A DNA stretch of 60,016 nucleotides from Nocardioidaceae bacterium (GTDB lineage: Bacteria; Actinomycetota; Actinomycetes; Propionibacteriales; Nocardioidaceae): the NCBI GenBank assembly GCA_013696745.1, contig JACCXZ010000133.1, forward strand, positions 1 through 60,016. Reading direction: 5' to 3'. The notes under the pieces are model-generated. The model saw only the letters and a program-made list of their open reading frames with translations. It searched no databases and had not been told where the DNA came from. Both the position numbers and the translations under genes were made by a program. Below, piece by piece: positions 9,650 through 53,955 of the stretch; the first letter of the stretch is position 1; each line of letters opens with the position of its first letter.

Positions 9650-12823
<3,174 letters not shown>

Positions 12824-12834
12824 GCTGATTCAGA

Positions 12835-12914
12835 CACTGCCCACGGCATGTTGCCACTGCCCATGGGTTGCGTCCCATGGGCAGTGCGGTTCACCAGGGG
12901 ACCCTGGTAAGCCG
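12835..12914. repeat. 80-nt double-hairpin repeat element, copy 1 (between convergent ileS and divIVA)
   Basis: Hairpin 1 (12855..12886) has a perfect 13-bp stem, CACTGCCCATGGG/CCCATGGGCAGTG, and a 6-nt loop. Hairpin 2 (12893..12908) is ACCAGG-GGAC-CCTGGT. By hand alignment 66 of 80 positions match 47699..47778. Confidence 0.85.
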
Positions 12915-12923
12915 CGGCGCTGA

Positions 12924-13661
12924 CTAGCCCTGCTGGTTCTGGTTGTCGGTGTCCCCGAGCAGCGAGTGCAAGCGTCGCGGCGAGTGCTCCGGCTCGCCGT
13001 CGGACTGCGGGGCTGCCACGCTCTGCTCGCCCTCGAGCTGCGAGAGCTGGTCGGTGAAGTAGGCCCTGAGGCGGCTGCGGTACTCACGCTCGAAGGAACG
13101 CAGCTCTTGGACCTCGCCGGACAAGCGGTCACGGTCCTTCTCGAGGTCGCCGAACAGCTGCTGGCGACGTTCGGCAGTCTCGACGTCGAGCTTCTCAGCG
13201 CGGCTGCGGGCGTCGCTCTCCACGCGGTCGGCCTTGGTGCGAGCCTCGGCGAGGATCCGATCCGCTTCCTCCTGGGCCTCCGCCATGACCTCGTCGGCGT
13301 TGCGGGTGGCAAGCTCGAGCAGCCGGGCGGCCGCCCCGGCCGCCTGGCCGATGGTGGTCACCGGGGCGCTCTCGGCGCTCGGTGCGTGCGCCTGGCTCGG
13401 ACCGGTTGACGGTGAGACCTCGTCCTGCACCGACGCTGCGTCGGACTCCGACGCCGGGGCCGCCTGCCCGCGCTCCTCGGTGGGTTGCAAGCCGGGGACG
13501 CCGCCGAGCCCGGACCGCAGGCCGTCGTTCTCCTGGGTCAGGCGATCGAGCTCGGACTCGACCTCATCGAGAAACTGGTCGACCTCGCCCATGTCGTAGC
13601 CCTCGCGCAGGCGGACGGGCGTGAAGCGCTTGTTCCGCACGTCCTCTGGAGTCAGCGGCAT
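12924..13661 (-). CDS. divIVA: DivIVA/Wag31 polar growth and division protein
   Basis: N-terminus MPLTPEDVRNKRFTPVRLREGYDMGEVDQFLDEV followed by coiled-coil regions. Confidence 0.95.
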   Translation of the reverse strand: MPLTPEDVRNKRFTPVRLREGYDMGEVDQFLDEVESELDRLTQENDGLRSGLGGVPGLQPTEERGQAAPASESDAASVQDEVSPSTGPSQAHAPSAESAPVTTIGQAAGAAARLLELATRNADEVMAEAQEEADRILAEARTKADRVESDARSRAEKLDVETAERRQQLFGDLEKDRDRLSGEVQELRSFEREYRSRLRAYFTDQLSQLEGEQSVAAPQSDGEPEHSPRRLHSLLGDTDNQNQQG

Positions 13662-31244: not shown

Positions 31245-31354
31245 CCGGTCCTGCCTTCGTCGTGGGTGCTGCTGGCGTGTGTTCGATCGCTGCGTCCAGG
31301 GCTCCCCCCGCTACCACGGGCATCTGGCACCGGGGAAGGTGTGCCAGAGGCGAC

Positions 31355-31370
31355 GTGGAGCGGAGTGGAG
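31355..31370 (+). promoter_or_regulatory. Pair of GTGGAG repeats at 10-nt spacing just downstream of mraZ (possible second MraZ site)
   Basis: GTGGAG-CGGA-GTGGAG on the plus strand, in the opposite orientation to the upstream operator. Only two repeats, so chance is possible. Confidence 0.3.
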
Positions 31371-31395
31371 ACCTCGCCGCACGAGCAGTCTGGAA

Positions 31396-37627: not shown

Positions 37628-38431
37628 ATGAAGCGAGTTGCCACAGTCGCCGCCACGATTGCCTTGGCGGGCGGACTCGTCCTGTCCCTGCTGCCGGCGG
37701 CCGGTGCCTCCTCCGGACCGTCGATCAGCACGAGCGCGCCGGTGGCATCGTCGTCCAACGCGTCGGTCGACGAGCGTCTGGCCTACAAGCCCCGTCAGCG
37801 CTTCGCCCGGGAGTTCGTCCGACGCGGAGACGTCGACAGCTCACCGTCGAACATCAAGCACGTACGTGAGCTGCAGTACCGGCTCACCTGGGCCGGTGCG
37901 TACAACGGTCCCATCACCGGACGGTTCGACAGCCGCCTGAGCGGTGCAGTCAAGCGGTTCCAGAAGCGCAGCAAGCTGCGCGTCACCGGCGTCGCGAACG
38001 TCCACACCTGGAAGAAGTTGATCCCGAAGACGGTACGCGGCAGGAAGGCCGTTCCGCAGGGGTGCAAGGTGCGCACCGGCTGGCACGCCTGCTACGACCG
38101 CTCCAGGCACCAGGTCACGCTGTGGAAGAGGGGCAAGTTGTGGAACTCCTGGTTGGTGCGTGGCGGCTCGTCCAGCACTCAGACCCGCGTGGGGCGCTCC
38201 GAGGTGTACTTCCGCAACAAGGACCACGTGAGCTCGCTCTTCGGGTCACCGATGCCGTACTCGCAGTTCTTCGACGGCGGTCAGGCCTTCCACGGGTCGA
38301 CGCTGATGATGAATCCGTTCGTGGGGCACAGCCATGGGTGCGTGAACATGTACATCAAGGATGCGCGGCAGCTGTGGCAGCTGACCGCGCACCGTGAGCT
38401 GAAGGTGCGCGTCTACGGGGCGTGGTCCTGA
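37628..38431 (+). CDS. L,D-transpeptidase with peptidoglycan-binding domain
   Basis: Signal peptide, a PG_binding_1-like repeat (LQYRLTWAGAYNGPITGRFDSRLSGAVKRFQ) and the YkuD catalytic motif HGSTLMMNPFVGHSHGCVNM. Confidence 0.88.
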   Translation: MKRVATVAATIALAGGLVLSLLPAAGASSGPSISTSAPVASSSNASVDERLAYKPRQRFAREFVRRGDVDSSPSNIKHVRELQYRLTWAGAYNGPITGRFDSRLSGAVKRFQKRSKLRVTGVANVHTWKKLIPKTVRGRKAVPQGCKVRTGWHACYDRSRHQVTLWKRGKLWNSWLVRGGSSSTQTRVGRSEVYFRNKDHVSSLFGSPMPYSQFFDGGQAFHGSTLMMNPFVGHSHGCVNMYIKDARQLWQLTAHRELKVRVYGAWS

Positions 38432-39696
38432 CCGGCGGGGTCATGCATCGGGTGTGACACAGCGGCATCCGGGTCCGGGTGCCGCTGCTGTCGGGTCCGG
38501 AGCAGGGTCGCCGGCTGCACGGCGCTGCGACCCCATCGACGTCCGGCGGCGTCCACGGCGCGCTCGGCGTCGGACCATCCGTGGGGGCGCTGGCCCAGCA
38601 TCAGCTGGCGCGGGGTGGAGGCTGCCGCCGCCAGCCCGCTCACCCGCACCCCGACCAGTCTGATGCGGGCGCGTTGCAGTCCCAGCGCGGCGAACAGGTC
38701 GGCTGCCTGGGCGTGGACCTCGATGGCGACATCGGTGGGGTCGCGCAGCGTACGTGACCGGGTGATGGTCGTGAAGTCGCTGAATCGGACCCGGAGCGTG
38801 ACGGTGCGACCGACGACCTCGGCGGCCCGCATCCGCGAGGTGACCTTCGTCGAGGAGCGCAGCAGCTCCCGCAGCACCACCTCGGGATCGTCGGTGTCTC
38901 GGTCGAAGGTCGTGTCGGACCCGATGCTGCGCTCCGGCTCCTCGACACCCCGCCGGGCCACCACGGTGGTGCGGCCACCGCCCCACGACAGGTCGTGCAG
39001 CTGGGCACCGGTGGCGGCGCCGAGCGCCCGGACGAGGACATCCACCGAGGTGTGGGCGATGTCGCCGATCGTGCACAGGCCCAGCCGTCGCAGTGTCGTG
39101 GCGGTGCTCTCCCCCACCCCCCACAGCTCCTCGACGTCCAAGGGGTGCAGGAAGGCTGTGGCTTGCTCCGGGGTCACGACCACGAGCCCGTCCGGCTTGG
39201 CCCGCCGCGAGGCCAGCTTGGCGAGGTGCGTCGTGGAGGCGATCCCTACCGAGCAGGTGATCCGCTGCTCGTCGGCGATGCGGGCCCGCAGCTGCTCGGC
39301 GACCTGGCGGGAGCCACCGAGCCGTCGCGCCGACCCGGAGATGTCGAGGAACGCCTCGTCCAACGACATCACCTCCACCATCGGGGTGATGTCACGGAAG
39401 GTCTCCATCACTGCGATGGACACCGCCGCGAAGCTCTCGAAGTCAGGAGAGATGACGGTCGCGGCCGGGCAGAGCCGTCGGGCTCGCATCGTCGGCATCG
39501 CCGAGCGCACCCCGAAGACACGCGCCTCGTAGCTCGCGGAGAGCACCACCCCCCGATGTCCACCGCCGACGATCACCGGGGTGCCCTGCAGGTCGGGTCG
39601 GTCCCGCGTCATCACCGAGGCATAGAACGCATCCATGTCGACATGCAGGATCGTGCAGTCACCGGGCCGCCAGCCGCGGCATGTCGGTGACCTCAT
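38413..39696 (-). CDS. dinB: Y-family DNA polymerase IV
   Basis: 427 aa with catalytic motifs ILHVDMDAFYASV and SLDEAFLDISG intact, plus little-finger region homology. Confidence 0.92.
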   Translation of the reverse strand: MRSPTCRGWRPGDCTILHVDMDAFYASVMTRDRPDLQGTPVIVGGGHRGVVLSASYEARVFGVRSAMPTMRARRLCPAATVISPDFESFAAVSIAVMETFRDITPMVEVMSLDEAFLDISGSARRLGGSRQVAEQLRARIADEQRITCSVGIASTTHLAKLASRRAKPDGLVVVTPEQATAFLHPLDVEELWGVGESTATTLRRLGLCTIGDIAHTSVDVLVRALGAATGAQLHDLSWGGGRTTVVARRGVEEPERSIGSDTTFDRDTDDPEVVLRELLRSSTKVTSRMRAAEVVGRTVTLRVRFSDFTTITRSRTLRDPTDVAIEVHAQAADLFAALGLQRARIRLVGVRVSGLAAAASTPRQLMLGQRPHGWSDAERAVDAAGRRWGRSAVQPATLLRTRQQRHPDPDAAVSHPMHDPAGQDHAP

Positions 39697-39726
39697 CGTG
39701 ACACCGTCCCGCCGGACGACGACAGG

Positions 39727-40536
39727 TCAGTTGCGGCGGCGGGAGACCACCATGAGCTGACCGGCGACGGCGGTGAGCTCAGGGATCTGCGCAACGGCAC
39801 GCTCGAGCTCGACGAGGGCGGTCTGGGCACCGGGCTCGGTGTCGACGACCGAGCTAGGGACGAGGTCGGCGAACACTCGGAGGCCGTGGACCGACTCGGC
39901 GGTGAAGCCGTGCGTCGCCAGCAGGTCGAGGATCTCCCCGCGGGTGTAGCGGCGGGGACTTCGCGCCTGCGCGTCGCCGGTCGGTGCCTCGAGCAGCGTC
40001 CGGGCGGCCGCGAGGTGTCCGGCCAGGGCACGTCCCAGTACGGCGGCGTACCGTCCGGCAACGACGACCGAGAGGACGCCGTCGCTCCGGAGCGCGTCAC
40101 CGATCGCCTCCAGAGCCTGCCCGGGGTCGTCCACCACCTCGAGGACCCCGTGGCAGAGCATGACGTCGACCGAACCGGGCGCCACGTGGTCACCGAGGTC
40201 GATGGTGTCGCCCTGGACACCGACGACCCGATCGGCCACGTTGTTCTCGTCGGCGCGCCGATGCATCGAGGCCAGGGCGTCAGGGTTGGGGTCGATGACG
40301 GTGACGTGGTGACCGAGCTCGGCTGCACGCACAGCCAGCCCGCCGGTGCCGCCACCGAGGTCGACGACCTGACGGGGACCGCTGCCCTCGTCGGCGCTGC
40401 CGAGCAGGTCTCGCACCCGCTCCCAGAGCACGGCGTTGCGGGCGATCCCGTGAGCCACACTGCGCTGGGGCCCGCCGGGGCGCGGTTGATGGACCACCGG
40501 GAGACTCCTCGACGACGCGATGACAGGTCGCCCCAC
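39727..40536 (-). CDS. Class I SAM-dependent methyltransferase
   Basis: 269 aa with motif I VVDLGGGTGGLA and a post-I acidic residue (VIDPN). The start is 4 nt after the dnaE2 stop. Confidence 0.85.
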   Translation of the reverse strand: MGRPVIASSRSLPVVHQPRPGGPQRSVAHGIARNAVLWERVRDLLGSADEGSGPRQVVDLGGGTGGLAVRAAELGHHVTVIDPNPDALASMHRRADENNVADRVVGVQGDTIDLGDHVAPGSVDVMLCHGVLEVVDDPGQALEAIGDALRSDGVLSVVVAGRYAAVLGRALAGHLAAARTLLEAPTGDAQARSPRRYTRGEILDLLATHGFTAESVHGLRVFADLVPSSVVDTEPGAQTALVELERAVAQIPELTAVAGQLMVVSRRRN

Positions 40537-40540
40537 CCTC

Positions 40541-43500
40541 TCATCCGCCGGAACTCCCCGGACTGCTGTGCCACAGCTTGCGCGGTGCGGACTTGGCGTC
40601 CTCCCCGGCCGGCTTGACGTCGGCGTACGGCGACTGTCGGAAGCCGCTGGCGTGCACGAGCACCCGCCGACGCCCCATTCCGCCGCCAGTCATGTCCTGC
40701 TCGCAGACGTCGGATGCGTACCCGCCCACACCCTGACCGTTCGAGGGGCCGCCGGGCTCGGCCATGACGGGTCGACTCGAGCGGCTCTGCGCCGCTCCCT
40801 GCCCGGCCAGCTCACCGACCGTCTGACCGAATCCTTCGGGTACCTGCTCGAGGTGGACGTGCACTCCTTCGGTTCCCTCACGCTGCCAGATCTCGTGCAA
40901 CGCCGACATCTCCCAGCAGCCGGTGGCCCGCAGGGAGACCCCACGAGGGCCGGTGCGCCGGAGCTCTCCGCGCACGACCATCAGCCAGGAGTGAAAGACG
41001 GTGGCGGCGTAGGGACCCTGGGCGTCCTCGAAGAAGGTGGCATCCAGCGGTCCGGTGCCGTCGTCGAGGGTCAAGAAGACCACCCGGCGGCCGGACCGGA
41101 TCGGAGGTGTCTGGGTGGCGACCTTGACCCCTGCGACCAGCAGCGTGCTGCGGCTGCGCTGTTCCAGGAGCGCCTGCGACCGGGTCACCCCCAGTGCCTG
41201 CAGCATCGGGGTGTAGAAGTCGACGACGTGCTGGCTGACGTCGAGACCGAGGATCTCCAGCTCGGCGTGGACACGCTCGGCCGAGGTCATCTCCGGCAGG
41301 CCCGAGCGTTCAGCCTCCCCCGGTTCGTCGCCGAGGTCGAGGGTCAGCTGCACCGGTTCCGCATGCACCACGGCCGACGTCTGGGACTGTGCGGCTGCCT
41401 TGGCCCAGGTGTCGTCGGCGCCGTGCACCGCCCCACGCACCTGCGTCCGGGCCGGATCGATACCAGCCGATCTGTCCCGGCCTCGACCGGCGCGCCGTCC
41501 GGCCCGGGCGGTGGCCCTGCCCCAATGGTCGAGCTCGAGCACCTGCAGCAGCAGGTCACGCCGGGTGACCCGCCCGCGGCGGCGTACCGGGACCGCGGAG
41601 CCGATGCCGTAGATCCCGTCGAACCCACCGGCGAGCACGAGACGCTCCACCACCGGTCGTGACACCCGGGCGCGGTGCCAGAAGTCGGTGAGCGAGTGGT
41701 AGGGCTGACCACCGATGATGCGGGCGACCTCGGCGTCGGAGATGCCCTTGACGTCTGCCAGCGAGAGCCGGATGCCGTAGCCCCGGGCGTCGGGCAAGCC
41801 GCTGTCGGGTGCCGCCCGTGGGTGCTCGTCGAGCACCCGGGGCGGTGGCTCGTCGAAGCGGCCGACCCGCTCGACCCGGTAGACGTCGCGGCACTCGTTG
41901 ACGTCGAGGCCTAGCACCGCGATGCCGAAGTGGCGGGCGTCGTCGAGGATCAGCCGCTTGGGATACATGCCCGGGTCGTGGGTCAGCACCCCGGACATGA
42001 ACGCCGCGGTGTGGTGGGTCTTGAGCCAGGCCGACTGGTACGTCGGCAGGGCGAAGGCCGCGGCGTGGGCCTTGCAGAAACCGAACGACGCGAACGCCTC
42101 CAGGATGGTCCACACCTGGCCGACGACCGGCTCGGCGTAGCCACGGGCCAGTGCCCGTGGGTAGAACCAGGCCCTCGTGTCGACCTTGCCTTCCCTGTCA
42201 CCGAGGGCGCGCCGGTGCTCGTCGGCCTCGGCCAGCGTGCAGCCGGCGAAGGTCTTGATGATCTCGAGCACCTGCTCGTGGAACACGACGACCCCGCAGG
42301 TCTGGCGCAGGGTGTACTCCAGGTCGGGGTGCGGGTAGACAGGTGCTCGCCACCCCTGCCGGGCCGACAGGAACGGCGTCACCATGTCGCTCTTGACCGG
42401 TCCGGGCCGGAACAACGAGATGTCGGTGATGATGTCGTCAAAGGTCTCCGGCCCGAACTTGCCCACCAGCTCGCGTTGTCCGGGTGACTCGATCTGGAAG
42501 CAACCCAGCGTCTTGGACCGGCTGATCAGCGCGTACGTGGCAGGGTCGTCGAGCGGCACCTGGACCCGGTCGTCGAGGTCGAGCTCGACCCCCTCGGTCC
42601 GCTCGATCTCGGCGACCGCGTGGGCCATCGCCGATTGCATCCGGATGCCGAGCACGTCGAGCTTGAGCAGCCCGAGGTCCTCGACGTCCTCCTTGTCGAA
42701 CTGGCTCATCGGGAATCCGGCATAGCTGGCCTCCACCGGGGTGCGGTCCAGCAGGGTCGCATCGGACAGCAGCACCCCGCACGGGTGCAGCGCAACATGA
42801 CGGGGTAGGCCGTCGAGCCGGGTCACGAGGTCGAACAACAGCCTGAGCCGCGCCTCCCCCAGTCCGGAGGCCCGCAGCTCGGGCAGCTCCCGCAGGGCCG
42901 CATGGGCGTCGCGGGCACGGATGTGCGGGAACGCCTTGGCAATCGTGTCGATCTCACCGCCGGGCATGCCGAGCGCAGCCCCGACGTCACGGATCGCATG
43001 GCGTACCCGGTAGGTGTCCATCATCGCCACGCAGGCACACCGTGCACCGGAGTAGCGGTCGAGGATCATCTCGTAGACCTCGAGGCGGCGCGCGGACTCC
43101 ACGTCGATGTCCACGTCGGGCAGCGCCTGACGCAGCGGGGACAGGAACCGCTCCATCACCAGGTCGTGCCCGAGCGGCTCGACCCCGGAGATGCCGAGCG
43201 CGTAGTTGACCAGGCTGCCGGCGCCTGACCCACGGGCGGCGACGCGGACGCCCATGTCCCGGATCAGGTCGCAGACGTCGGCCACTGTCAGGAAGTACGA
43301 CGCGAAGCCAAGCCCGGCGATCATCCCGAGCTCGTGCTCGAGCCGGTCGTGCACGCGCAGACCGGCGGAGCTGCCGTAGCGGCGAACGATGCCGGACTCG
43401 CAGCGCTGGCGCAGGACGGCCTCGGCGGTGAGACCTACCCCACTCATTCCCCCGGCGGCTCCTGCACCGGTGACCTCGAACTCCGGGAAGTGCACCTCTC

Positions 43501-44479
43501 CGAGCCCGAGGTCGGCCTGCGGGTCGAGGGCGAGACGGTCGGCGAGGCGTCGGGTGCCCGCCAGCAGCCGCTGCGGGTCGCCGGCATCGCTGTGACCGCC
43601 CAGACCTGCCATCCGGCTGATCTCCTCGGCGACCTCCCCCATCTGCTTGCCGGACTTCAGGTGTCCCTCGGTGTTGCGCCGATCGAGGTGCCGGACGTCC
43701 AGTGGCACCAGCCGGCGGACCGCGTCGAGTACGTCGACCACGGGCGCATCGCCGGGGTCGGCGTGGCGGACGGCATTGGTGAGCACCATCCCCACACCGT
43801 GCCGGTCGGCAGTACCGGCCATGCGTGCAGCGTGGGTGCTGCTGCCGGGACCCGAACCCTGCACCCGGTGCGACACCAGCTCGACCAGCAGGTCGGGGGT
43901 GTCCACGACGTCGCGCCACCGCCGCAGCACCGCGGCCGCCAGGTCGTCGCGTCGGCGGGTCACCGCGGCACCGAGCTCGGACCCGGGGCCGAGCAGCACC
44001 ACGGCGTCACGGCCACCGAGGTGCTCCCCGACGAGGTCGAGCGTGGTCACCGGGTTGCCACGCTCGGCACGCAGGTGGGTGGCGGAGACGAGACGGCACA
44101 GACCGGCCCAGCCGTCACGGCTGCCTGCCAGGACGGTGACCCGGGGCAGCACACCAGCGACGTCACGGTGCGCACCGCCGCGAGCCGGGATGGTCCGCGG
44201 CTCACGGGCCACGGGTGCCGACGGCGCCCCGGAGCCGACCTCCAGCAGGCCGGTGGGCTCGACCGCCAGGTCGACCCCGAGGACGGGGCGGATGCCCGCC
44301 CGTAGGCACGCCTTGGCGAACCGGACCGCACCGTAGACACCGTCCCGGTCGGTCAGCGCGAGGGTGCCCATCTGCTGCTCGGCCGCCCGCTCGACCAGCA
44401 CGTGCGGGTGGGAGGCGCCGTAGCGCAGCGAGTAGCCGGAGGCGACGTGCAGGTGGACGAACGGGTCGTCGCCGATCAC
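40541..44479 (-). CDS. dnaE2: Error-prone DNA polymerase III alpha paralogue DnaE2
   Basis: 1312 aa with the N-terminal PHP motif FVHLHVASGYSLRYGAS and a polymerase core. The characteristic DnaE2 C-terminus is present (VLVHASGFRQSPYADVKPAG..PRKLWHSSPGSSGG). Confidence 0.93.
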   Translation of the reverse strand: MIGDDPFVHLHVASGYSLRYGASHPHVLVERAAEQQMGTLALTDRDGVYGAVRFAKACLRAGIRPVLGVDLAVEPTGLLEVGSGAPSAPVAREPRTIPARGGAHRDVAGVLPRVTVLAGSRDGWAGLCRLVSATHLRAERGNPVTTLDLVGEHLGGRDAVVLLGPGSELGAAVTRRRDDLAAAVLRRWRDVVDTPDLLVELVSHRVQGSGPGSSTHAARMAGTADRHGVGMVLTNAVRHADPGDAPVVDVLDAVRRLVPLDVRHLDRRNTEGHLKSGKQMGEVAEEISRMAGLGGHSDAGDPQRLLAGTRRLADRLALDPQADLGLGEVHFPEFEVTGAGAAGGMSGVGLTAEAVLRQRCESGIVRRYGSSAGLRVHDRLEHELGMIAGLGFASYFLTVADVCDLIRDMGVRVAARGSGAGSLVNYALGISGVEPLGHDLVMERFLSPLRQALPDVDIDVESARRLEVYEMILDRYSGARCACVAMMDTYRVRHAIRDVGAALGMPGGEIDTIAKAFPHIRARDAHAALRELPELRASGLGEARLRLLFDLVTRLDGLPRHVALHPCGVLLSDATLLDRTPVEASYAGFPMSQFDKEDVEDLGLLKLDVLGIRMQSAMAHAVAEIERTEGVELDLDDRVQVPLDDPATYALISRSKTLGCFQIESPGQRELVGKFGPETFDDIITDISLFRPGPVKSDMVTPFLSARQGWRAPVYPHPDLEYTLRQTCGVVVFHEQVLEIIKTFAGCTLAEADEHRRALGDREGKVDTRAWFYPRALARGYAEPVVGQVWTILEAFASFGFCKAHAAAFALPTYQSAWLKTHHTAAFMSGVLTHDPGMYPKRLILDDARHFGIAVLGLDVNECRDVYRVERVGRFDEPPPRVLDEHPRAAPDSGLPDARGYGIRLSLADVKGISDAEVARIIGGQPYHSLTDFWHRARVSRPVVERLVLAGGFDGIYGIGSAVPVRRRGRVTRRDLLLQVLELDHWGRATARAGRRAGRGRDRSAGIDPARTQVRGAVHGADDTWAKAAAQSQTSAVVHAEPVQLTLDLGDEPGEAERSGLPEMTSAERVHAELEILGLDVSQHVVDFYTPMLQALGVTRSQALLEQRSRSTLLVAGVKVATQTPPIRSGRRVVFLTLDDGTGPLDATFFEDAQGPYAATVFHSWLMVVRGELRRTGPRGVSLRATGCWEMSALHEIWQREGTEGVHVHLEQVPEGFGQTVGELAGQGAAQSRSSRPVMAEPGGPSNGQGVGGYASDVCEQDMTGGGMGRRRVLVHASGFRQSPYADVKPAGEDAKSAPRKLWHSSPGSSGG

Positions 44480-45063
44480 CGGGACTGCCCGCGGCCCGAG
44501 CCACTGAACCCCACCAGTCGTCCGACGATCCCGAGGAAGATCTCGACGTCACGCACCAGGTCGTCGGCGTCCCGGTTGCTGACTGCGTGCACGTGCCCGG
44601 CCTCGGCCGCGGCCCGCTTCGGCGCCCCGGCGGCGAAGAAGGTGGCCCACTCGGCCAGCTCCGGGGCGACCCGCTCGAGCAGCACCCAGGCGTTGCTCTG
44701 GCGGTGCATGCTCTGTGGGCGGGTCCGCACCACCAGAACCGCGGCGGTCGCACGCAGCGCAGCGACGTGAGCCGTGACGTAGCGCCGGTCGGCGTACGGC
44801 TCGACCCTCGCCTCGGACAGGGCCTGCTCAGCCCGGTCGAGGCTACGCGCTGCCTCGTGGAGACGGCCCGGAGACGGCAGTGCAGGCTGCTCGCTGCGGC
44901 TGGCGCGTGGGACGCGCTCACGTATGGTGCCTGGCGTGCTGATCGTCTGGCTTCGGCGCATGTCGCTCCCCTGTCGCTGCTGGTCGGTCCTCCAGCGCCC
45001 GGGGGAAGACGGTGCCGGTACGGCGGGTGCCGAACCGGCACGGGAGCTTCCCCACCCCCGCAC
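44476..45063 (-). CDS. HEPN-like helical protein (recalls the SAV_6107 family), translationally coupled to dnaE2
   Basis: The C-terminal half reads RRYVTAHVAALRATAAVLVVRTRP..NAWVLLERVAPELAEWATFFAAGAPKRAAAEAG..DADDLVRDVEIFLGIV. The stop overlaps the dnaE2 start by 4 nt. The true start may be the ATG at 44961. Family name is from memory. Confidence 0.7.
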   Translation of the reverse strand: MRGWGSSRAGSAPAVPAPSSPGRWRTDQQRQGSDMRRSQTISTPGTIRERVPRASRSEQPALPSPGRLHEAARSLDRAEQALSEARVEPYADRRYVTAHVAALRATAAVLVVRTRPQSMHRQSNAWVLLERVAPELAEWATFFAAGAPKRAAAEAGHVHAVSNRDADDLVRDVEIFLGIVGRLVGFSGSGRGQSR

Positions 45064-45208
45064 CGGCCCGACTGGCTGCTGCGCGGCCGGTGAGGGTCGA
45101 GGTCACGTCACGCACAGCAGGGTCCGCCACGCAAGGAGACGCTGCGAACATCACCCTGCGGTGTCCGAACAGGGTGTCGGCCACCCGGCACCGGAAGGTA
45201 CCGAGCGA

Positions 45209-45224
45209 TCGAACATTTGTTCGA
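45209..45224. promoter_or_regulatory. LexA (SOS) box, perfect TCGAAC-N4-GTTCGA
   Basis: The sequence is TCGAACATTTGTTCGA. It matches the actinobacterial/mycobacterial SOS box and lies between the divergent HEPN-like/dnaE2 string and the hydrolase gene. Confidence 0.88.
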
Positions 45225-45233
45225 ACGCTTCAT

Positions 45234-45256
45234 ACAGTACACCTCCGTGCCGACAG
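45234..45256 (-). promoter_or_regulatory. RecA-NDp-type (PafBC-type) DNA-damage promoter
   Basis: The minus strand reads cTGTCGgca-N8(cggaggtg)-TACTGT, against the described consensus tTGTCRgtg-8nt-TAnnnT. The LexA box begins 9 nt downstream. Confidence 0.7.
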
Positions 45257-45306
45257 CTGCGTCAAGGAACCAACCGCTGTGGACAACTCCGTATGGCGGC
45301 TGAGCA

Positions 45307-46206
45307 ATGCGTTGCGTCATGATCATTCGCGTGTTCGAGTCGTTCGAGGAAATCAGGGTCGCTGTTGATGACGGCGTACAGCTGAGAGTCCGCCACGGAG
45401 GCAGGGGTGAGCCGGTGGTGCTGCTGCACGGGCATCCCCGCACGCACACCACCTGGCACCGGGTCGCGCCGCTGCTGGTCACGGCCGGCCACACCGTGGT
45501 CTGCCCCGACCTGCGGGGGTACGGACAGTCCTCAACGCCGCCCACGACACCCGACCACGCCCCGTACTCCAAACGCGCCATGGCCGCCGACGTGCTGACC
45601 CTGATGCGCCAGCTGGGACACGAGCGGTTCGCCGTCGTCGGTCACGACCGAGGGAGCTACGTCGCGATGCGCCTGGCCCTCGACGCACCGGAGGCCGTGA
45701 CCCACCTCGCCGTTCTGGACAGCGTCCCGATCGCCGAGGCACTCGATCGCACCGACGCCAGGTTCGCCACGGCGTGGTGGCACTGGTTCTTCTTCGCCCA
45801 GCCCGACAAGCCCGAGCAGGCGATCCTCGCCGACCCTGACGCCTGGTACGGCGGGGACAAGACCGAAGGCATGGGTGCGGAGAACTACGCCGACTACCGC
45901 CGGGCGATCCATGACCCGGCAACGGTGCACGCGATGCTCGAGGACTATCGCGCCGGCTTGGGCCCCGACCGAGCGGCCGACGAGGCCGACCGCGCTGCCG
46001 GCCGCCGGATCACCTGCCCGACGCTGATGCTGTGGTCCACCGGTGACGATCTGGCTGATCTGCACGGCGACGTCCTGGCCATCTGGCAGCCGTGGACGAC
46101 CGACCTGAGCGGTGGCCCCATCGACAGTGGCCATCACATCGCCGAGGAAGCACCCGACGAACTGGCGGCCCGGCTCCATCAGTTCCTCGCCGCCAGCACC
46201 GCCTAG
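45307..46206 (+). CDS. Alpha/beta hydrolase, haloacetate-dehalogenase/epoxide-hydrolase-like
   Basis: 299 aa with HGHPRTHTTW, RGYGQS and a GHDRG nucleophile elbow. The start could be the ATG at 45319. Confidence 0.85.
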   Translation: MRCVMIIRVFESFEEIRVAVDDGVQLRVRHGGRGEPVVLLHGHPRTHTTWHRVAPLLVTAGHTVVCPDLRGYGQSSTPPTTPDHAPYSKRAMAADVLTLMRQLGHERFAVVGHDRGSYVAMRLALDAPEAVTHLAVLDSVPIAEALDRTDARFATAWWHWFFFAQPDKPEQAILADPDAWYGGDKTEGMGAENYADYRRAIHDPATVHAMLEDYRAGLGPDRAADEADRAAGRRITCPTLMLWSTGDDLADLHGDVLAIWQPWTTDLSGGPIDSGHHIAEEAPDELAARLHQFLAASTA

Positions 46207-46550
46207 TCCTGGCAGCCGATCAGGCGCCACTGACCCGTCGACCAGTCGAAGCTGAGGTCGAACACGCCCCGATGACCGAGCCGCCCCTGCGCTGCCTCGA
46301 CGCGCCAGATCTCACGCTCGGCCAGCAGCGCGTCCATCGACCCGCCGCCCCGGTCGGTCTGGCTCGCAATGTCCTCCGCCCCGAGCAGTGCCCGCACCTC
46401 CTCGTGCTGCCACCACGCACCGGTCTCCACCCAGTGCGAGACGATCTCGCACACCCGCCACAGCTGACCGCGCCACAGGAAGTGCGCCGGAGCCTCCCGC
46501 CGCTGCACCTGGCCCCGCTGCACCGAGACCGTGTCGTCGTACCGTCTCAT
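46203..46550 (-). CDS. Small conserved hypothetical protein (possibly DUF6504-like), damage-regulated
   Basis: 115 aa from the ATG at 46550 (MRRYDDTVSVQRGQVQRREAPAHFLWRGQLWRVCEIVSHWVETGAWWQ). SD is GGGAGGTGG. Family name is from memory only. Confidence 0.65.
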   Translation of the reverse strand: MRRYDDTVSVQRGQVQRREAPAHFLWRGQLWRVCEIVSHWVETGAWWQHEEVRALLGAEDIASQTDRGGGSMDALLAEREIWRVEAAQGRLGHRGVFDLSFDWSTGQWRLIGCQD

Positions 46551-46571: not shown

Positions 46572-46587
46572 TCGAACACGCGTTCGA
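46572..46587. promoter_or_regulatory. LexA (SOS) box, perfect TCGAAC-N4-GTTCGA, inside a 34-nt palindrome
   Basis: The box is TCGAACACGCGTTCGA, flanked by CCGAGTGG and CCACTCGG (palindrome 46563..46596). It lies 22 nt upstream of the 46550 start. Confidence 0.88.
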
Positions 46588-46598
46588 CCCACTCGGAG

Positions 46599-46621
46599 AC
46601 GCTACACCTCTCCACCGACAG
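46599..46621 (-). promoter_or_regulatory. RecA-NDp-type (PafBC-type) DNA-damage promoter
   Basis: The minus strand reads cTGTCGgtg-N8(gagaggtg)-TAGCGT, an exact fit to tTGTCRgtg-8nt-TAnnnT. It sits immediately after the TopIB stop. Confidence 0.78.
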
Positions 46622-46624
46622 TGA

Positions 46625-47623
46625 TCACTCGCGCAGCAGCCGCAGCACCGCCCGCTCGAGTCGTGCCTGTCGCTCGTCCGGCGTAGGGGCGCGCTGCACC
46701 TTCGCCACCGCGGCTGCGATGGTGCGCCCGCTCTCGTAGCGCTCGATCACGCGGGGGTCGACGTAGGAGGCGCGGGCCACGGTGGGGGTGTTGCCCAGGT
46801 GCTCTGCCACGTCCTTCATCGCAGCGGAGATCTCCCGCTTGCGCGCGGTCCTGCTCTGCGCCGGCCGGCCGGCGAGCGAGACCGCGGCGTGCACGGTGCC
46901 GTGCCAGGTGCGGAAGTCCTTGGCCGAGACGTCGCAGCCGAGGATCACCTTGAGCTGGTCGTTGACCTGTCCAGCGGTCAGGTCACGCCAGCTGCGGCCC
47001 TGCCGGTAGGCCAGCAGGACCTCGCCACCCCGTCGCCGGCGTAGCGACTCGACGGCCTCGATCACTGTCTCGTCGGCGATCTCGATGCTCTGCGTCACTC
47101 CTGACTTCGCCGTGAACGTGAACACCAACAGGCCGCCGCGCCGGCGTACGTGTTCACGACGCAACGTGGTAAGGCCATAGCTGCCGTTGCTCGAGGCGTA
47201 GGTGTCGCTGCCGATCCGGAAGTAGCCGAGATCCAGCAAGCGGAAGGCTGTCGCGACCGCGTACGGCAGGTCCCGCGTGCGGGAGGCCAGGATGTCCGCG
47301 ACCGCGAGACGCGCCTCTGGCAGACGCCGCGCCACCCCTAGCACCTGGGCATGCTTGATGCGGTCGCGCTGGACGCGCCAGTCCGGGTGGTAGAGGTACT
47401 GGAGTCGTCCGGCGGCGTCGATTCCGGTCGCCTGCACGTGCCCGTTCGGGTACCGACAGATCCAGACGTCGCGCCAGGCCGGAGGGATGACCAGGGCCTT
47501 GACGCGCTCGACGTGCTCGACCGACAGCCGCTCAGCACGCTCGTCGAGGTACGTGAAGCCCCGACCGCTGCGGCGACGAGTCCAGCCCACGTCGGAGACT
47601 GAGACGGTACGCAGGCGGGCCAC
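46625..47623 (-). CDS. Bacterial type IB DNA topoisomerase (poxvirus-like)
   Basis: 332 aa with FTYLDERAERL, a conserved core (KDFRTWHGTV) and an active-site Tyr context (ARASYVDPRV). Confidence 0.85.
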   Translation of the reverse strand: MARLRTVSVSDVGWTRRRSGRGFTYLDERAERLSVEHVERVKALVIPPAWRDVWICRYPNGHVQATGIDAAGRLQYLYHPDWRVQRDRIKHAQVLGVARRLPEARLAVADILASRTRDLPYAVATAFRLLDLGYFRIGSDTYASSNGSYGLTTLRREHVRRRGGLLVFTFTAKSGVTQSIEIADETVIEAVESLRRRRGGEVLLAYRQGRSWRDLTAGQVNDQLKVILGCDVSAKDFRTWHGTVHAAVSLAGRPAQSRTARKREISAAMKDVAEHLGNTPTVARASYVDPRVIERYESGRTIAAAVAKVQRAPTPDERQARLERAVLRLLRE

Positions 47624-52660: not shown

Positions 52661-53815
52661 TCATGGTGCGCCGGCGGGTGTCGGGATCAGGATGCCGCCA
52701 GCGGTGTGGAACACCGCACCACCGTGTCCGTCGGCCGTGCAGACGAGATGGCCTTGGTGCAGCAGGGTGTGGCAGCTGGTGCACAGACCGATCAGGTTGG
52801 TCATGTCGGTGGGTCCGCCGGCCAACCAGGACACGATGTGATGGATCTGCAGGTTGCGGTGATGGCAGCCGGGGGTAGCGCACTGGAAGTCTTGCGCCAA
52901 GAGCACCGCAAGCCGCTGCTTCGGGGTGGCGATGCGTTCGGTGCGGCCGACGTCGAGCACGTTCCGGTACGGGGTGAGCGGACAGCCGCAGGTGTGTCGG
53001 GGACCGGGCGGGTCGTGACCCGGCGTCGGTCCCGGATCACCGCCACCGCCACCGCCACCGCCCCAGCCCTCAACGACGCGGCCAGTCACGGGATGCTGGT
53101 GGTCGGTAGTCGATCCGTCGGTGAGCACCACCGTCAAGGCTGCGTCGCAGCCCAACCGGGCGAGCAGGTCACGTCCGATGCTGCCGTAGCCGGCCAGGGT
53201 GGCCGGCGGCGAGGGGGTCGTCCTGTCGCCGGACATGGCGTGCGCGAGGATGGTGGCGTCGACGGTGACCACGAGGTGCGGGCGCACGCCGTGGTCACTG
53301 GGGAGCCCACCGGCCAGCACCGCATCCAGCAGGGCGTCGAGACCCTCGACACGGCGCCGTGCCACCGGGCGGTCGTCGGAGGCATGAGCCGGCTTGGCGA
53401 ACGAGTCGAGCAGGGCGCGCAGCTTCGCGCCGGTCTCAGGGCTGAGCCAGCCGTTGACCTGGTAGCCGCTTCCGACCCGGTGACACGTGATGTCCTGCTT
53501 CTCTTGGGCGTGCGCCCAGTCCCGCTCGGCCGCATCCGGGTCGATGGTGTCGCGCAGCCGGTCGACGGCGATGCGTAGGTCCCGCACGTCGCCGTCAGTG
53601 GCGACGCCGAGCAGGATCTGTTGGGCGTCTCGGACGACCGGGGTCCCGATGCGGCGGGTGGCCTCGGCGAACACGTCGACGTGATCCATCCGGATGCTGC
53701 CGGCAGCCAAGGCGGCGGCCACGTCGGGAAGCTGACGCAGGGCTGCACCGGCACGACGGCGACGGCGGGTCTGTGCTGGAGACAGCCGCAGCTCGCGGCG
53801 CAACCACGCGCTCAT
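52661..53815 (-). CDS. DUF222-type HNH endonuclease (REP13E12-like), N-terminally disrupted
   Basis: 384 aa with a DUF222-like helical region and the HNH motif CHHRNLQIHHIVSWLAGGPTDMTNLIGLCTSCHTLLH. An internal Gly8 run is encoded by (GGCGGT)x4. Confidence 0.82.
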   Translation of the reverse strand: MSAWLRRELRLSPAQTRRRRRAGAALRQLPDVAAALAAGSIRMDHVDVFAEATRRIGTPVVRDAQQILLGVATDGDVRDLRIAVDRLRDTIDPDAAERDWAHAQEKQDITCHRVGSGYQVNGWLSPETGAKLRALLDSFAKPAHASDDRPVARRRVEGLDALLDAVLAGGLPSDHGVRPHLVVTVDATILAHAMSGDRTTPSPPATLAGYGSIGRDLLARLGCDAALTVVLTDGSTTDHQHPVTGRVVEGWGGGGGGGGDPGPTPGHDPPGPRHTCGCPLTPYRNVLDVGRTERIATPKQRLAVLLAQDFQCATPGCHHRNLQIHHIVSWLAGGPTDMTNLIGLCTSCHTLLHQGHLVCTADGHGGAVFHTAGGILIPTPAGAP

Positions 53816-53932: not shown

Positions 53933-53955
53933 ATATTAGGTGTCTGCTCCGACAG
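53933..53955 (-). promoter_or_regulatory. RecA-NDp-type (PafBC-type) DNA-damage promoter upstream of the DUF222-HNH gene
   Basis: The minus strand reads cTGTCGgag-N8(cagacacc)-TAATAT, in a locally AT-richer patch about 25 nt upstream of the 53907 ATG. Confidence 0.65.

Follow-up and report, generated by a model that had tools for sequence, protein, structure and literature searches.

The window analysed here, a 60,016-nt stretch of DNA from a Nocardioidaceae bacterium, carries on its minus strand a string of four closely spaced genes in the order HEPN, dnaE2, methyltransferase (MTase) and dinB, in agreement with the original prediction. The range given there, 40541..45256, covers the promoter, HEPN and dnaE2 but not the MTase and dinB genes, which lie at 38413..40536. 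The first gene (44476..44961) encodes a HEPN_SAV_6107 protein of 161 aa (Pfam PF18726, E=4.8e-33); the ORF spans 44476..45063, and the true start is likely the ATG at 44961, since the gene callers choose it and no GC3 coding signal is present upstream. Its stop codon shares the predicted four nucleotides, GTGA, with the start of dnaE2 (40541..44479), which encodes a C-family polymerase of 1312 aa from the "DnaE2B" group, with the catalytic PDVDID motif and the Pfam domains PHP, DNA_pol3_alpha, finger, HHH_6 and OB. The first 400 aa of this polymerase are 63% identical to the DnaE2B of N. euryhalodurans (QBR90836), and its N-terminus is 45% identical to Streptomyces DnaE2B. It scores below the NCBIfam cut-offs for both the DnaE1 and the "error-prone" models, while the dnaE1 of the window (2503..6039) passes the DnaE1 cut-off with 1530 bits. 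A terminator scan returned a single weak terminator-like site inside dnaE2, which is not above chance.

The third gene (39727..40536) encodes a class I SAM-dependent methyltransferase that is CmoM/SmtA-like (Pfam Methyltransf_11/12/25). A gap of 4 nt between dnaE2 and this gene, as first described, holds for a start at GTG 40536; the likely start, however, is GTG 40497 (256 aa), which is preceded by GAGGAG and used in public gene calls, and leaves a gap of 43 nt. After the expected 30 nt follows dinB (38413..39696), encoding a Y-family polymerase DinB (PolY) of 427 aa with Pfam IMS and IMS_C domains, which exceeds the cut-off of NCBIfam PRK03858 (387 bits against 367). The active-site motifs DMDAFYAS and SLDEAFLD are present, together with a QLMLG clamp-type motif and a RecA-NT-like C-terminal motif, and an alignment of 26 cassette DinBs revealed that the active site, QLxLG and the RecA-NT-like motif are conserved, so that the gene was rightly called a real DinB and not an ImuB.

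Upstream of HEPN, the minus-strand letters at 45256..45234 read cTGTCGGCA-cggaggtg-TACTGT. They contain a PafBC-type (RecA-NDp) element, TGTCGGCA-N8-TACTGT (45234..45255), which would serve the HEPN-dnaE2-MTase-dinB unit and matches exactly both TGTCGG-N10-TAnnnT and the mycobacterial consensus tGTCgg(N10)tA(N3)T (PMC8635444). A perfect LexA box, TCGAACAAATGTTCGA (45209..45224), is located 9 nt downstream of the -10 and would span transcript positions of roughly +3 to +18. A -35-like hexamer, TTGACG (45260..45265, minus strand), precedes the TGTCGG element by 4 nt and leaves a 20-nt spacer to the -10. Two perfect TCGAAC-N4-GTTCGA sites were found in the window against 0.00 expected (100 shuffles); for exact TGTCGG-N10-TAnnnT sites the count is three, with 0.12 expected, and two of these three precede the two LexA boxes by 9 and 11 nt. 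The dual RecA-NDp/LexA promoter proposed for this position is therefore borne out, with its motifs in place, far above chance, and with a spacing kept in relatives; we infer that PafBC and LexA both act on this one promoter. Neither the pafBC nor the lexA gene is in the 60-kb window. Between promoter and HEPN lies a lineage-specific 5′ leader, roughly 250 nt long and non-coding (44962..45208, minus strand), with a strong predicted fold (z=-3.7), in which no frame-specific GC3, DUF6504 remnant or Rfam family was detected.

A second copy of the dual promoter precedes a standalone ImuB-C (DUF6504) gene (46203..46550, minus strand; 115 aa; Pfam PF20114, E=1.6e-16), 1.2 kb upstream of the HEPN start. 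Its PafBC-type element, TGTCGGTG-N8-TAGCGT (-26 element plus -10; 46599..46620, minus strand), is again an exact TGTCGG-N10-TAnnnT match and begins 5 nt past the stop codon of a topoisomerase IB gene, and a perfect LexA box, TCGAACACGCGTTCGA (46572..46587), follows 11 nt downstream of the -10; the TTGACG hexamer accompanies only the HEPN copy in the window. The ImuB-C ORF has an in-frame GC3 of 0.88-0.92, and its product is 52% identical (E=3e-36) to QBR94233, the Nocardioides euryhalodurans ImuB-C according to the supplement of PMC12926913. The AF2 model is for the most part beta-strand (pLDDT 83) and has no fold match in the PDB. An alpha/beta-hydrolase gene (45307..46206, plus strand; Pfam Abhydrolase_1) stands between ImuB-C and HEPN; judged from comparison with related loci, it is foreign to the system and in this lineage interrupts what is elsewhere an unbroken ImuB-C-HEPN operon. 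It is missing here from 25/25 genome loci and 57/58 metagenome loci, where HEPN comes directly after DUF6504, and is found in the same place in the sibling contigs L082-L084.

The standalone ImuB-C with its own dual promoter contradicts the earlier statement that no imuA'- or imuB-like gene flanks dnaE2 in the window. A tblastn search of the 60 kb with DinB, scDinB2 and RecA probes did find no ImuA-like or full-length ImuB gene, as would suit a new mutasome type devoid of any ImuA'/ImuB-like component, with HEPN and MTase as replacement accessory factors. We consider such a type very improbable, because ImuB-C is present under the same promoter type and heads the same operon in relatives, and because this kind of module had already been described: the DnaE2B-PolY-ImuB-C-RecA mutasome class was predicted computationally in NAR 2026 (PMC12926913), and an earlier analysis covers the same ground (PMC6511836). 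The idea of a mutasome-type module without ImuB-like parts thus falls.

The cassette forms a single operon in relatives, in the order ImuB-C, HEPN, DnaE2, MTase and DinB, with 16 complete five-gene loci and nine partial ones obtained from Kineosporiales, Propionibacteriales, Geodermatophilales and Mycobacteriales; Nocardioides sp. WL0053 provides an example with Pfam-labelled genes. Across 80 HEPN loci, the MTase was a neighbour in 65, with orthologues at 45-60% identity, DinB in 32 and dnaE2 in only 19, so the adjacency of HEPN and dnaE2 is not consistent, MTase and DinB being commoner partners. With up to two mismatches allowed, a LexA box was observed in all 37 non-Streptomyces genome loci (perfect in 27), and a perfect box in 68/71 metagenome loci; it lies 7-11 nt after the -10, mostly 9. 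The exact TGTCGG-N10-TAnnnT motif was present in 18/37 and 43/71 of these loci, respectively; the 1.4 Mb of locus DNA contains just 19 copies of it, 18 of them at the cassette promoter. Roughly half of the related loci have a decayed -26 element, suggesting possible differences between lineages in the PafBC input. Of 39 cassette promoters, 38 carry a TTGAC or TTGCG hexamer, and in the 19 promoters with both the exact PafBC motif and the upstream hexamer, the distance from hexamer end to TGTCGG is 3 nt in 18 and 4 nt in one. This conserved TTGACG, placed 3-4 nt before the -26 element, is at odds with mycobacterial PafBC promoters, which were reported, along with the PafBC mechanism, to be without a -35 (PMC8635444), and the spacer of 19-20 nt is long.

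The cassette is located in a syntenic region near the dcw cluster, with TgpA, DUF3040, YkuD and the mraW RNA, and its module composition is combinatorial across lineages. HEPN and MTase might thus be hitch-hikers placed there by historical accident, with no functional link to damage tolerance. This is improbable, as gene order and tight spacing are conserved in four or more orders of actinobacteria, HEPN is the next gene in 57/58 of the ImuB-C-centred metagenome loci that have room for a gene downstream, and HEPN stands directly behind the LexA/PafBC promoter in the loci where ImuB-C is absent. Moreover, HEPN retains 47-60% identity and some 29 nearly invariant residues, a degree of conservation that neutral hitch-hiking would not maintain.

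The HEPN_SAV_6107 family is restricted to actinobacteria, and the window protein belongs to it by a strong Pfam match and a helical-bundle model (AF2, pLDDT 84), whose top PDB fold matches are HEPN domains, though weak ones (E=1e-2). The 2013 survey of HEPN domains (Anantharaman 2013, PMC3710099) listed SAV_6107 without gene context and without a conserved Rx4-6H; a conserved SOS/TLS context can now be added. R130-x6-R137 stands in place of the canonical Rx4-6H motif, while R60-x4-H65 is invariant in the family. The closest characterised relative of the MTase by sequence is CmoM (SmtA), the tRNA 5-carboxymethoxyuridine methyltransferase, and among solved structures it comes closest to CmoM 8joz and 4htf (E=3e-16, near full length). 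It is nevertheless not a CmoM orthologue, judging by its score of 86.7 bits (E=1.7e-24), far under the NCBIfam equivalog cut-off of 366. Both proteins had been called uncharacterised partners, and they are indeed without a described function, yet conserved in the cassette context.

The HepT toxins among the HEPN fold matches, and weak or generic PADLOC matches (PDC-M05B, E=2.7e-4, for HEPN; mad2 methyltransferase domain, E=8e-18, for the MTase), could hint that the two genes are a toxin-antitoxin system or a defence pair against phages, HEPN being the toxin. We give this the least credence of all the readings, since the protein differs from HepT/MntA toxins in having no MNT partner, the canonical motif is lost, no plasmid copies were found, and vertical conservation, a syntenic chromosomal site and LexA control are unlike patchy defence islands.

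A more serious, though still unlikely, alternative is that HEPN and the MTase form a separable RNA-acting module (tRNA binding, cleavage or modification in stress) within the SOS operon and outside the polymerase complex. The HEPN-MTase pair occurs without polymerases in 41 Streptomyces loci, and alone behind a perfect LexA box in one further locus (L065); conversely, the polymerase genes are found without HEPN or MTase in Tessaracoccus (VEP41449-51) and without HEPN in locus L093. HEPN domains are typically RNA-directed (PMC3710099), the MTase is nearest to a tRNA methyltransferase, and the invariant R60/H65 dyad is retained with other charged residues. However, HEPN accompanies DinB alone, with no MTase, in 10 Propionibacteriaceae loci, the histidine is gone from the canonical catalytic position, and the MTase is far under the CmoM cut-off. 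Additionally, the stop codon of HEPN touches or overlaps the start of dnaE2 in different orders, an arrangement more typical of co-assembling products. Our best guess, held tentatively and at less than even odds, is that HEPN, its canonical RNase motif lost, assists or regulates the polymerases as a small partner protein. Loci with polymerases but no HEPN, and the lone Streptomyces pair, make a direct mutasome role of HEPN and MTase tentative at most.

The comparison with known systems places the locus closest to the predicted DnaE2B-PolY-[ImuB-C]-RecA mutasome, with which it shares DnaE2B, a standalone ImuB-C, an active PolY with a RecA-NT motif, and the same taxa (Nocardioidaceae, Kineosporiaceae and Intrasporangiaceae). 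PMC12926913 describes four components without the HEPN_SAV_6107 and MTase genes lying between them, and its tetramer models do without both; accession gaps in its examples (APH01277/79/81, ABS04677/79/81, QBR90836/38) fit two extra genes. The promoter architecture is likewise not in that study, and the window differs further in its inserted hydrolase, which sets ImuB-C apart, and in its two promoter copies. The mycobacterial ImuA'-ImuB-DnaE2 mutasome (Warner 2010; PMC10421592) also combines a damage-induced C-family polymerase, a Y-family-related partner and an ImuB-C domain, and LexA and PafBC control of imuA'/imuB and dnaE2 was shown there experimentally (PMC8682763). In contrast to it, the window has no ImuA', encodes a Y-family protein with intact catalytic residues and ImuB-C as a small protein of its own, and has a DnaE2 of group B instead of A. 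The window LexA box is the exact mycobacterial operator, TCGAAC-N4-GTTCGA, directly abutting the -10, with the LexA and PafBC sites 9 nt apart at one promoter, versus about 166 nt at mycobacterial imuA'. The Streptomyces dnaE2-dinB2 operon, LexA-bound and SOS-induced by UV or MMC (PMC3273824, PMC9380542), also has DnaE2B followed by a Y-family gene; however, dinB2 is fused 4 bp to dnaE2 and its product was judged inactive (PMC6511836), ImuB-C is lacking, no PafBC motif was found (PMC9380542), and HEPN and MTase lie elsewhere as a separate pair.

The locus is thus quite probably a chromosomal DNA-damage-inducible TLS cassette for two error-prone polymerases, of the DnaE2B-PolY-ImuB-C-RecA class, as indicated by the identity of its ImuB-C and DnaE2 to published members of that class and by the five-gene operon in relatives. 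The ancestral operon would have comprised one promoter, ImuB-C (DUF6504), HEPN_SAV_6107, DnaE2B, the SAM-methyltransferase and DinB, and in this lineage the plus-strand hydrolase separates ImuB-C from the rest, each part having its own promoter copy. Each promoter may be viewed as one core with two inputs, a PafBC -26 element (TGTCGG) and a LexA operator, the -26 element of the HEPN copy sharing its -10 with the -35-like TTGACG. The LexA operator, just past the -10 and over the start site, would allow LexA to block initiation until RecA-stimulated self-cleavage, after which PafBC, activated by ssDNA, would raise transcription by sigma adaptation. The products would be made together, translational coupling being suggested by the overlapping or close start and stop codons. 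By analogy with published AlphaFold models, ImuB-C may dock on the PHP domain of DnaE2B, and DinB may bind RecA via its RecA-NT motif and the clamp via QLxLG, with HEPN and MTase as conserved members of the same predicted transcription unit. The HEPN gene and the CmoM-like MTase are not mentioned in PMC12926913, and no discussion of them was found in the other literature searched. The cassette is therefore a member of a known, predicted kind, with HEPN and the MTase as a conserved accessory pair that has received too little description.

Four co-oriented genes were found behind the HEPN promoter on the minus strand, encoding a HEPN_SAV_6107 family protein (HEPN, 44476..44961), a 1312-aa DnaE homologue (DnaE2, 40541..44479), a class I SAM-methyltransferase (MTase, 39727..40536) and DinB (38413..39696). 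The tight, co-oriented string of the original prediction was borne out, with all four genes identified by Pfam and NCBIfam and their reading frames backed by GC3, and the same holds for two of its junctions, namely a 4-nt overlap (GTGA) between the stop codon of HEPN and the start codon of dnaE2, and a gap of exactly 30 nt from the MTase stop to the dinB start. The third junction, an MTase start 4 nt after the dnaE2 stop, is correct for the GTG at 40536 but not for the GTG at 40497 behind GAGGAG, as in the public gene calls. A DinB start at 39636 was rejected because the first catalytic Asp would be lost. The 250 nt from the LexA box to the ATG at 44961 are non-coding by GC3 in each frame, so that the length of HEPN is 161 aa instead of 195 aa. 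This 5′ leader (44962..45227, minus strand, about 250–265 nt) has a predicted fold of −148.7 kcal/mol (z = −3.7), far more stable than shuffled sequence. When the entire window was scanned against Rfam, neither the leader nor the rest of the cassette gave a match; the only one was an mraW RNA (RF01746, 55.9 bits) at 31278..31390 on the minus strand, where the dcw cell-division cluster begins, about 7 kb away from the cassette.

Two copies of a dual damage promoter were located in the window. At the HEPN promoter, where the minus strand reads ccTTGACGcagcTGTCGGCAcggaggtgTACTGTatgaagcgtTCGAACAAATGTTCGA by direct sequence reading, an exact PafBC-type (RecA-NDp) element, TGTCGG-N10-TAnnnT, lies at 45255..45234, followed 9 nt later by a perfect LexA box, TCGAAC-N4-GTTCGA, at 45224..45209 (minus-strand reading). 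A −35-like hexamer, TTGACG, lies upstream of the TGTCGG (45260..45265, minus strand), so that this hexamer, the PafBC −26 element and the LexA operator fit within about 57 bp. The second copy precedes the ImuB-C gene, with an exact PafBC-type element, TGTCGGTG-N8-TAGCGT, at 46620..46599 on the minus strand and, 11 nt downstream, a perfect LexA box at 46587..46572 (minus-strand reading); it has no −35-like hexamer and abuts the stop codon of a topoisomerase IB gene. Perfect LexA boxes occurred twice in the window against zero expected from dinucleotide shuffles, and the exact PafBC-type motif three times against 0.12 expected, both cassette promoters being among the three. The predicted PafBC and LexA double promoter in front of HEPN is therefore upheld, both motifs being exact and far above the shuffle expectation. 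The topoisomerase IB gene (46625..47623, minus strand) runs in the same direction and stops 5 nt short of the ImuB-C promoter element. Its transcription may read through into the cassette, and the gene is missing at that position in Nocardioides sp. WL0053.

The third exact PafBC-type motif (53933..53954, minus strand) has no adjoining LexA box; some 120 nt downstream of it comes a gene for a DUF222+HNH endonuclease (52661..53815, minus strand), which we take to be REP13E12-like. The REP13E12 family is part of the RecA-independent damage regulon of M. tuberculosis, and the position of the motif thus fits a working PafBC regulon in the source organism, of which the DUF222+HNH gene is probably another member. 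Within the 3′-terminal part of the ImuB-C gene lies a LexA-like site with two mismatches (46246..46261), which recurs at the same position in at least 12 related loci; since the recurrence is explained by the conserved peptide FDLxFD encoded there (TTCGACCTnnnnTTCGAC), an operator function is improbable.

The original prediction held that no imuB-like gene flanks dnaE2, which proved wrong, as a standalone DUF6504 protein of 115 aa is encoded at 46550..46203 on the minus strand behind the second dual promoter. It was recognised by its Pfam match and shares 52% identity (E = 3e-36) with the ImuB-C protein QBR94233 of Nocardioides euryhalodurans in a 2026 survey of bacterial polymerases (PMC12926913), the supplement of which lists modelled proteins of "DnaE2B-PolY-ImuBC-RecA systems". 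The structure model of the window protein is beta-rich and without a significant PDB fold match in Foldseek, and ImuB-C is likewise described as beta-rich with no PDB fold match (PMC12926913). No fusion of DUF6504 to an IMS domain was seen among the best 150 of 799 matches in a search of 1.84 billion representatives, all of these being standalone, and the assignment of DUF6504 as ImuB-C therefore rests on the published orthologue. Searches of PDB sequences with the HEPN and DUF6504 profiles returned nothing meaningful.

Mutasomes of the DnaE2 type drive mutagenesis in response to DNA damage, with drug resistance in mycobacteria among the results, and to our knowledge the non-canonical ones are known from computation alone. 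The window DnaE2 falls below the NCBIfam cut-offs of both DnaE1 and the canonical "error-prone" DnaE2. Over the 399 aa that could be compared it shares 63% identity (E = 1e-144) with the DnaE2B protein QBR90836 of N. euryhalodurans, and its identity to Streptomyces DnaE2B is 45%. About 35 kb away lies the replicative dnaE1 (1178 aa, 2503..6039, minus strand), which scores 1530 bits with NF004226, whose cut-off is 1002, and is only 29% identical to dnaE2B. DinB passes the NCBIfam Pol IV cut-off, and an alignment of 26 cassette DinBs revealed that the catalytic Asp and Asp-Glu residues are kept in all of them. All 26 also carry QLxLG, similar to the motif by which E. coli Pol IV binds the clamp, followed by a C-terminal GWxxAxRAxDxAxxRFG that is RecA-NT-like by pattern resemblance. 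The Y-family gene is thus a real DinB rather than ImuB, as predicted, with its catalytic residues kept and no fused ImuB-C.

Neither imuA nor a full imuB was found in or beside the cassette, and a further Y-family gene or a RecA-like gene was not detected by tblastn within the 60-kb window. The locus therefore differs from the canonical ImuA-ImuB-DnaE2 cassette, in which an adjacent inactive RecA homologue and an inactive Y-family-ImuB-C fusion are present, and resembles the DnaE2B-PolY-ImuB-C-RecA class of PMC12926913 in its group-B DnaE2, standalone ImuB-C and apparently active PolY. In that class, RecA is the fourth subunit and the genomes have no imuA and imuB (PMC12926913). The ImuB-C and DnaE2B identities place the locus in this already predicted class, and we read it with high confidence as a DnaE2B-PolY-ImuB-C type translesion cassette under LexA repression and probably PafBC activation. 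Its reading as a mutasome-type module in the original prediction consequently stands in part: the accessory genes have indeed been left out of descriptions, but the class had been predicted computationally and ImuB-C is present.

The words "HEPN" and "methyltransferase" do not occur in the main text of PMC12926913, nor does "HEPN" in its supplements, and no paper giving context for HEPN_SAV_6107 (PF18726) or DUF6504 (PF20114) was found in the literature. The accession numbers of the published ImuB-C, DnaE2B and PolY sets skip one number each time in Janibacter (APH01277, APH01279, APH01281) and Kineococcus (ABS04677, ABS04679, ABS04681), with a single-number skip also in Nocardioides (QBR90836, QBR90838), and these skips sit exactly at the HEPN and MTase positions of our sampled loci. 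Tessaracoccus is the exception, with consecutive numbers (VEP41449–41451).

A total of 80 genome loci encoding a HEPN_SAV_6107 relative were each compared with the window proteins. The order ImuB-C-HEPN-DnaE2-MTase-DinB was obtained in 16 loci from Pseudokineococcus, Marmoricola and Propionibacteriales and Mycobacteriales MAGs, and three further loci showed it incompletely, two being cut by contig ends (L031, L056) and one, from Modestobacter (L078), having no DinB detected past the MTase. Six loci had ImuB-C-HEPN-MTase-DinB with DnaE2 missing, 10, for the most part from Propionibacteriaceae, had HEPN-DinB, 42 (41 from Streptomyces, plus L065) had HEPN-MTase, and in three HEPN lay at the contig end. 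A consistent adjacency of HEPN to dnaE2 in relatives was not borne out, dnaE2 being the neighbour of HEPN in 19 of the 80 loci. Projected intergenic distances in the genome loci were mostly between −15 and +60 nt. In a second, independent sample of metagenome loci centred on ImuB-C, HEPN was directly downstream of ImuB-C in 57 of the 58 loci with room for it, and one locus (L093) had ImuB-C-DnaE2-MTase-DinB with HEPN missing. In L069 (about 1.9 kb, 10393..12332) and L032 (about 2.8 kb, 10396..13269), additional DNA separates HEPN from the cassette gene that follows.

In the window, an alpha/beta-hydrolase gene on the opposite strand (45307..46206) separates ImuB-C from HEPN. This arrangement was found in none of the sampled loci and is present in sibling contigs of the same population, from which we conclude that a recent local rearrangement produced the split and the second copy of the promoter. 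The ImuB-C gene of the relatives fills the space of the window's HEPN leader; no decayed DUF6504 copy was detected in the 250-nt leader by blastx against 26 DUF6504 proteins or by blastn between the two promoter regions. By its precomputed Pfam annotation, Nocardioides sp. WL0053 has the same five genes. Its synteny with the window extends to the flanking genes TgpA, DUF3040, YkuD and tRNA_edit, which places the cassette at a conserved chromosomal site.

The promoter is conserved across relatives. An alignment of 80 nt around the LexA box from 37 non-Streptomyces loci and the two window copies revealed a common layout of cTTGACG, 3 nt, TGTCGG, 10 nt, TAnnnT, 7–11 nt (mostly 9) and TCGAAC-N4-GTTCGA. 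A LexA box with at most two mismatches was found in all 37 genome loci (perfect in 27), and 18 of them match the PafBC consensus exactly at the fixed offset; the exact motif occurs only 19 times in all 1.4 Mb of locus DNA, including these 18. The metagenome sample gave a perfect LexA box in 68 and an exact PafBC motif in 43 of 71 loci. A TTGAC/TTGCG −35-like hexamer lies upstream of TGTCGG in 38 of 39 cassette promoters, the exception being the window's ImuB-C copy, and it ends 3–4 nt before TGTCGG in all 19 promoters where the distance was measurable, leaving a spacer of 19–20 nt to the −10.

The published PafBC consensus is tGTCgg(N10)tA(N3)T, and PafBC is seated between DNA and sigma region 4, reading a −26 element plus a normal −10 at mycobacterial promoters that have no −35 (PMC8635444). 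The cassette promoters differ from these in their conserved TTGACG-type hexamer with its 19–20 nt spacer, which may support weak PafBC-independent transcription under the control of LexA alone. If transcription starts about 7 nt past the −10, the LexA box would span roughly +3 to +18, and LexA would then block both initiation routes. Joint LexA/PafBC control of dnaE2 and imuA′/imuB has been established experimentally in mycobacteria (PMC8682763), and LexA binding and UV or MMC induction have been shown for Streptomyces dnaE2-dinB (PMC3273824, PMC9380542). The Streptomyces HEPN-MTase pairs (loci L004–L080) carry no TGTCGG motif, and in about 14 of the 41 a degenerate CCGAAC-N4-GATCGA, fitting the S. 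venezuelae LexA core CGAAC-N4-GnnCGA, lies some 250 nt ahead of the HEPN match. The Streptomyces pair might also be SOS-regulated.

The "HEPN-like" label of the original prediction and the four-helix up-down fold of the HEPN superfamily were sustained by a Pfam PF18726 match (E = 4.8e-33) and by a structure model, a helical bundle with a pLDDT of 84, whose top Foldseek PDB matches are HEPN domains (2hsb, 1wol, 8xeh, 3o10), albeit weak ones (E = 1e-2, TM 0.5–0.6). The canonical Rx4-6H, expected where the last core helix begins, is absent, with R130-EADDLV-R137-D138 in its place in all 81 sequences, in agreement with the "No" entered for a catalytic motif in the HEPN_SAV_6107 family (PMC3710099). 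R60-x4-H65 on the first core helix and about 15 further charged or aromatic residues are invariant in the 81 sequences; the canonical RNase site is thus gone, yet a conserved polar surface remains. Two predicted polypeptides of the representative set, P0435 (680 aa) and P0465 (292 aa), carry both DUF6504 and HEPN_SAV_6107. They were not counted as fusion evidence since frameshifted metagenome calls are a likely cause; if real, they would argue for a physical interaction of ImuB-C and HEPN. The MTase keeps an intact SAM motif (VVDLGGGTGG) and is closest to CmoM, a tRNA methyltransferase (8joz, 4htf, E = 3e-16), but with 86.7 bits against the cut-off of 366 for the CmoM equivalog NF008264, it is related to CmoM at the family level alone.

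A defence or toxin-antitoxin system made of HEPN and the MTase is highly improbable, and the defence reading was rejected because the PADLOC matches are weak or domain-level only. Whereas the HepT/MntA (HEPN-MNT) toxin-antitoxin pair has an adjacent minimal nucleotidyltransferase (NTase), no NTase was found next to HEPN: its upstream neighbour is ImuB-C or the hydrolase, and its downstream one is DnaE2, the MTase or DinB. Furthermore, HEPN and DUF6504 had no tblastn match in 72,556 plasmids, which gives no sign of mobility and also counts against a defence or toxin-antitoxin role.

That HEPN is an accessory subunit of the polymerases is a plausible reading that we hold at somewhat less than even chance. 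A direct link of HEPN and the MTase to the polymerases is favoured by their near-constant position within the operon, and it is further supported by the HEPN-dnaE2 start/stop overlap and the HEPN-DinB operons behind the same promoter; that the two are hitch-hikers in the operon appears quite unlikely. Against an obligate role stand the Tessaracoccus polymerase genes, which lack both, the metagenome locus without HEPN, and the tetramer models of PMC12926913, rated good without HEPN or the MTase. Streptomyces likewise retains HEPN-MTase without the polymerases, and a separable RNA-directed module formed by the pair is a possibility to which we give rather less than one chance in two, well short of favouring it. 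A broader proposal, that HEPN and the MTase are either genuine SOS translesion components or a damage-induced RNA-directed arm co-regulated with mutagenesis, is held by us as doubtful but worth stating. As components, HEPN would serve DinB/DnaE2B as a small subunit with a regulatory or adaptor function like that of UmuD′, YolD or ImuA′, and the MTase would modify the polymerase, the DNA/RNA substrate or tRNA. If true in either form, the published four-component mutasome model would be incomplete.

What is new here is the presence of two conserved genes omitted from the class description and the conserved −35-like/PafBC/LexA architecture of the cassette promoter. This compact natural promoter is a convenient system for how two actinobacterial damage responses combine. 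The Actinobacteria-specific DnaE2B-PolY-ImuB-C variant has two further conserved genes in most lineages, and HEPN remains behind the LexA/PafBC promoter even where DinB alone or the methyltransferase alone is left, so HEPN and the MTase are two concrete, testable candidates for missing accessory or regulatory factors.
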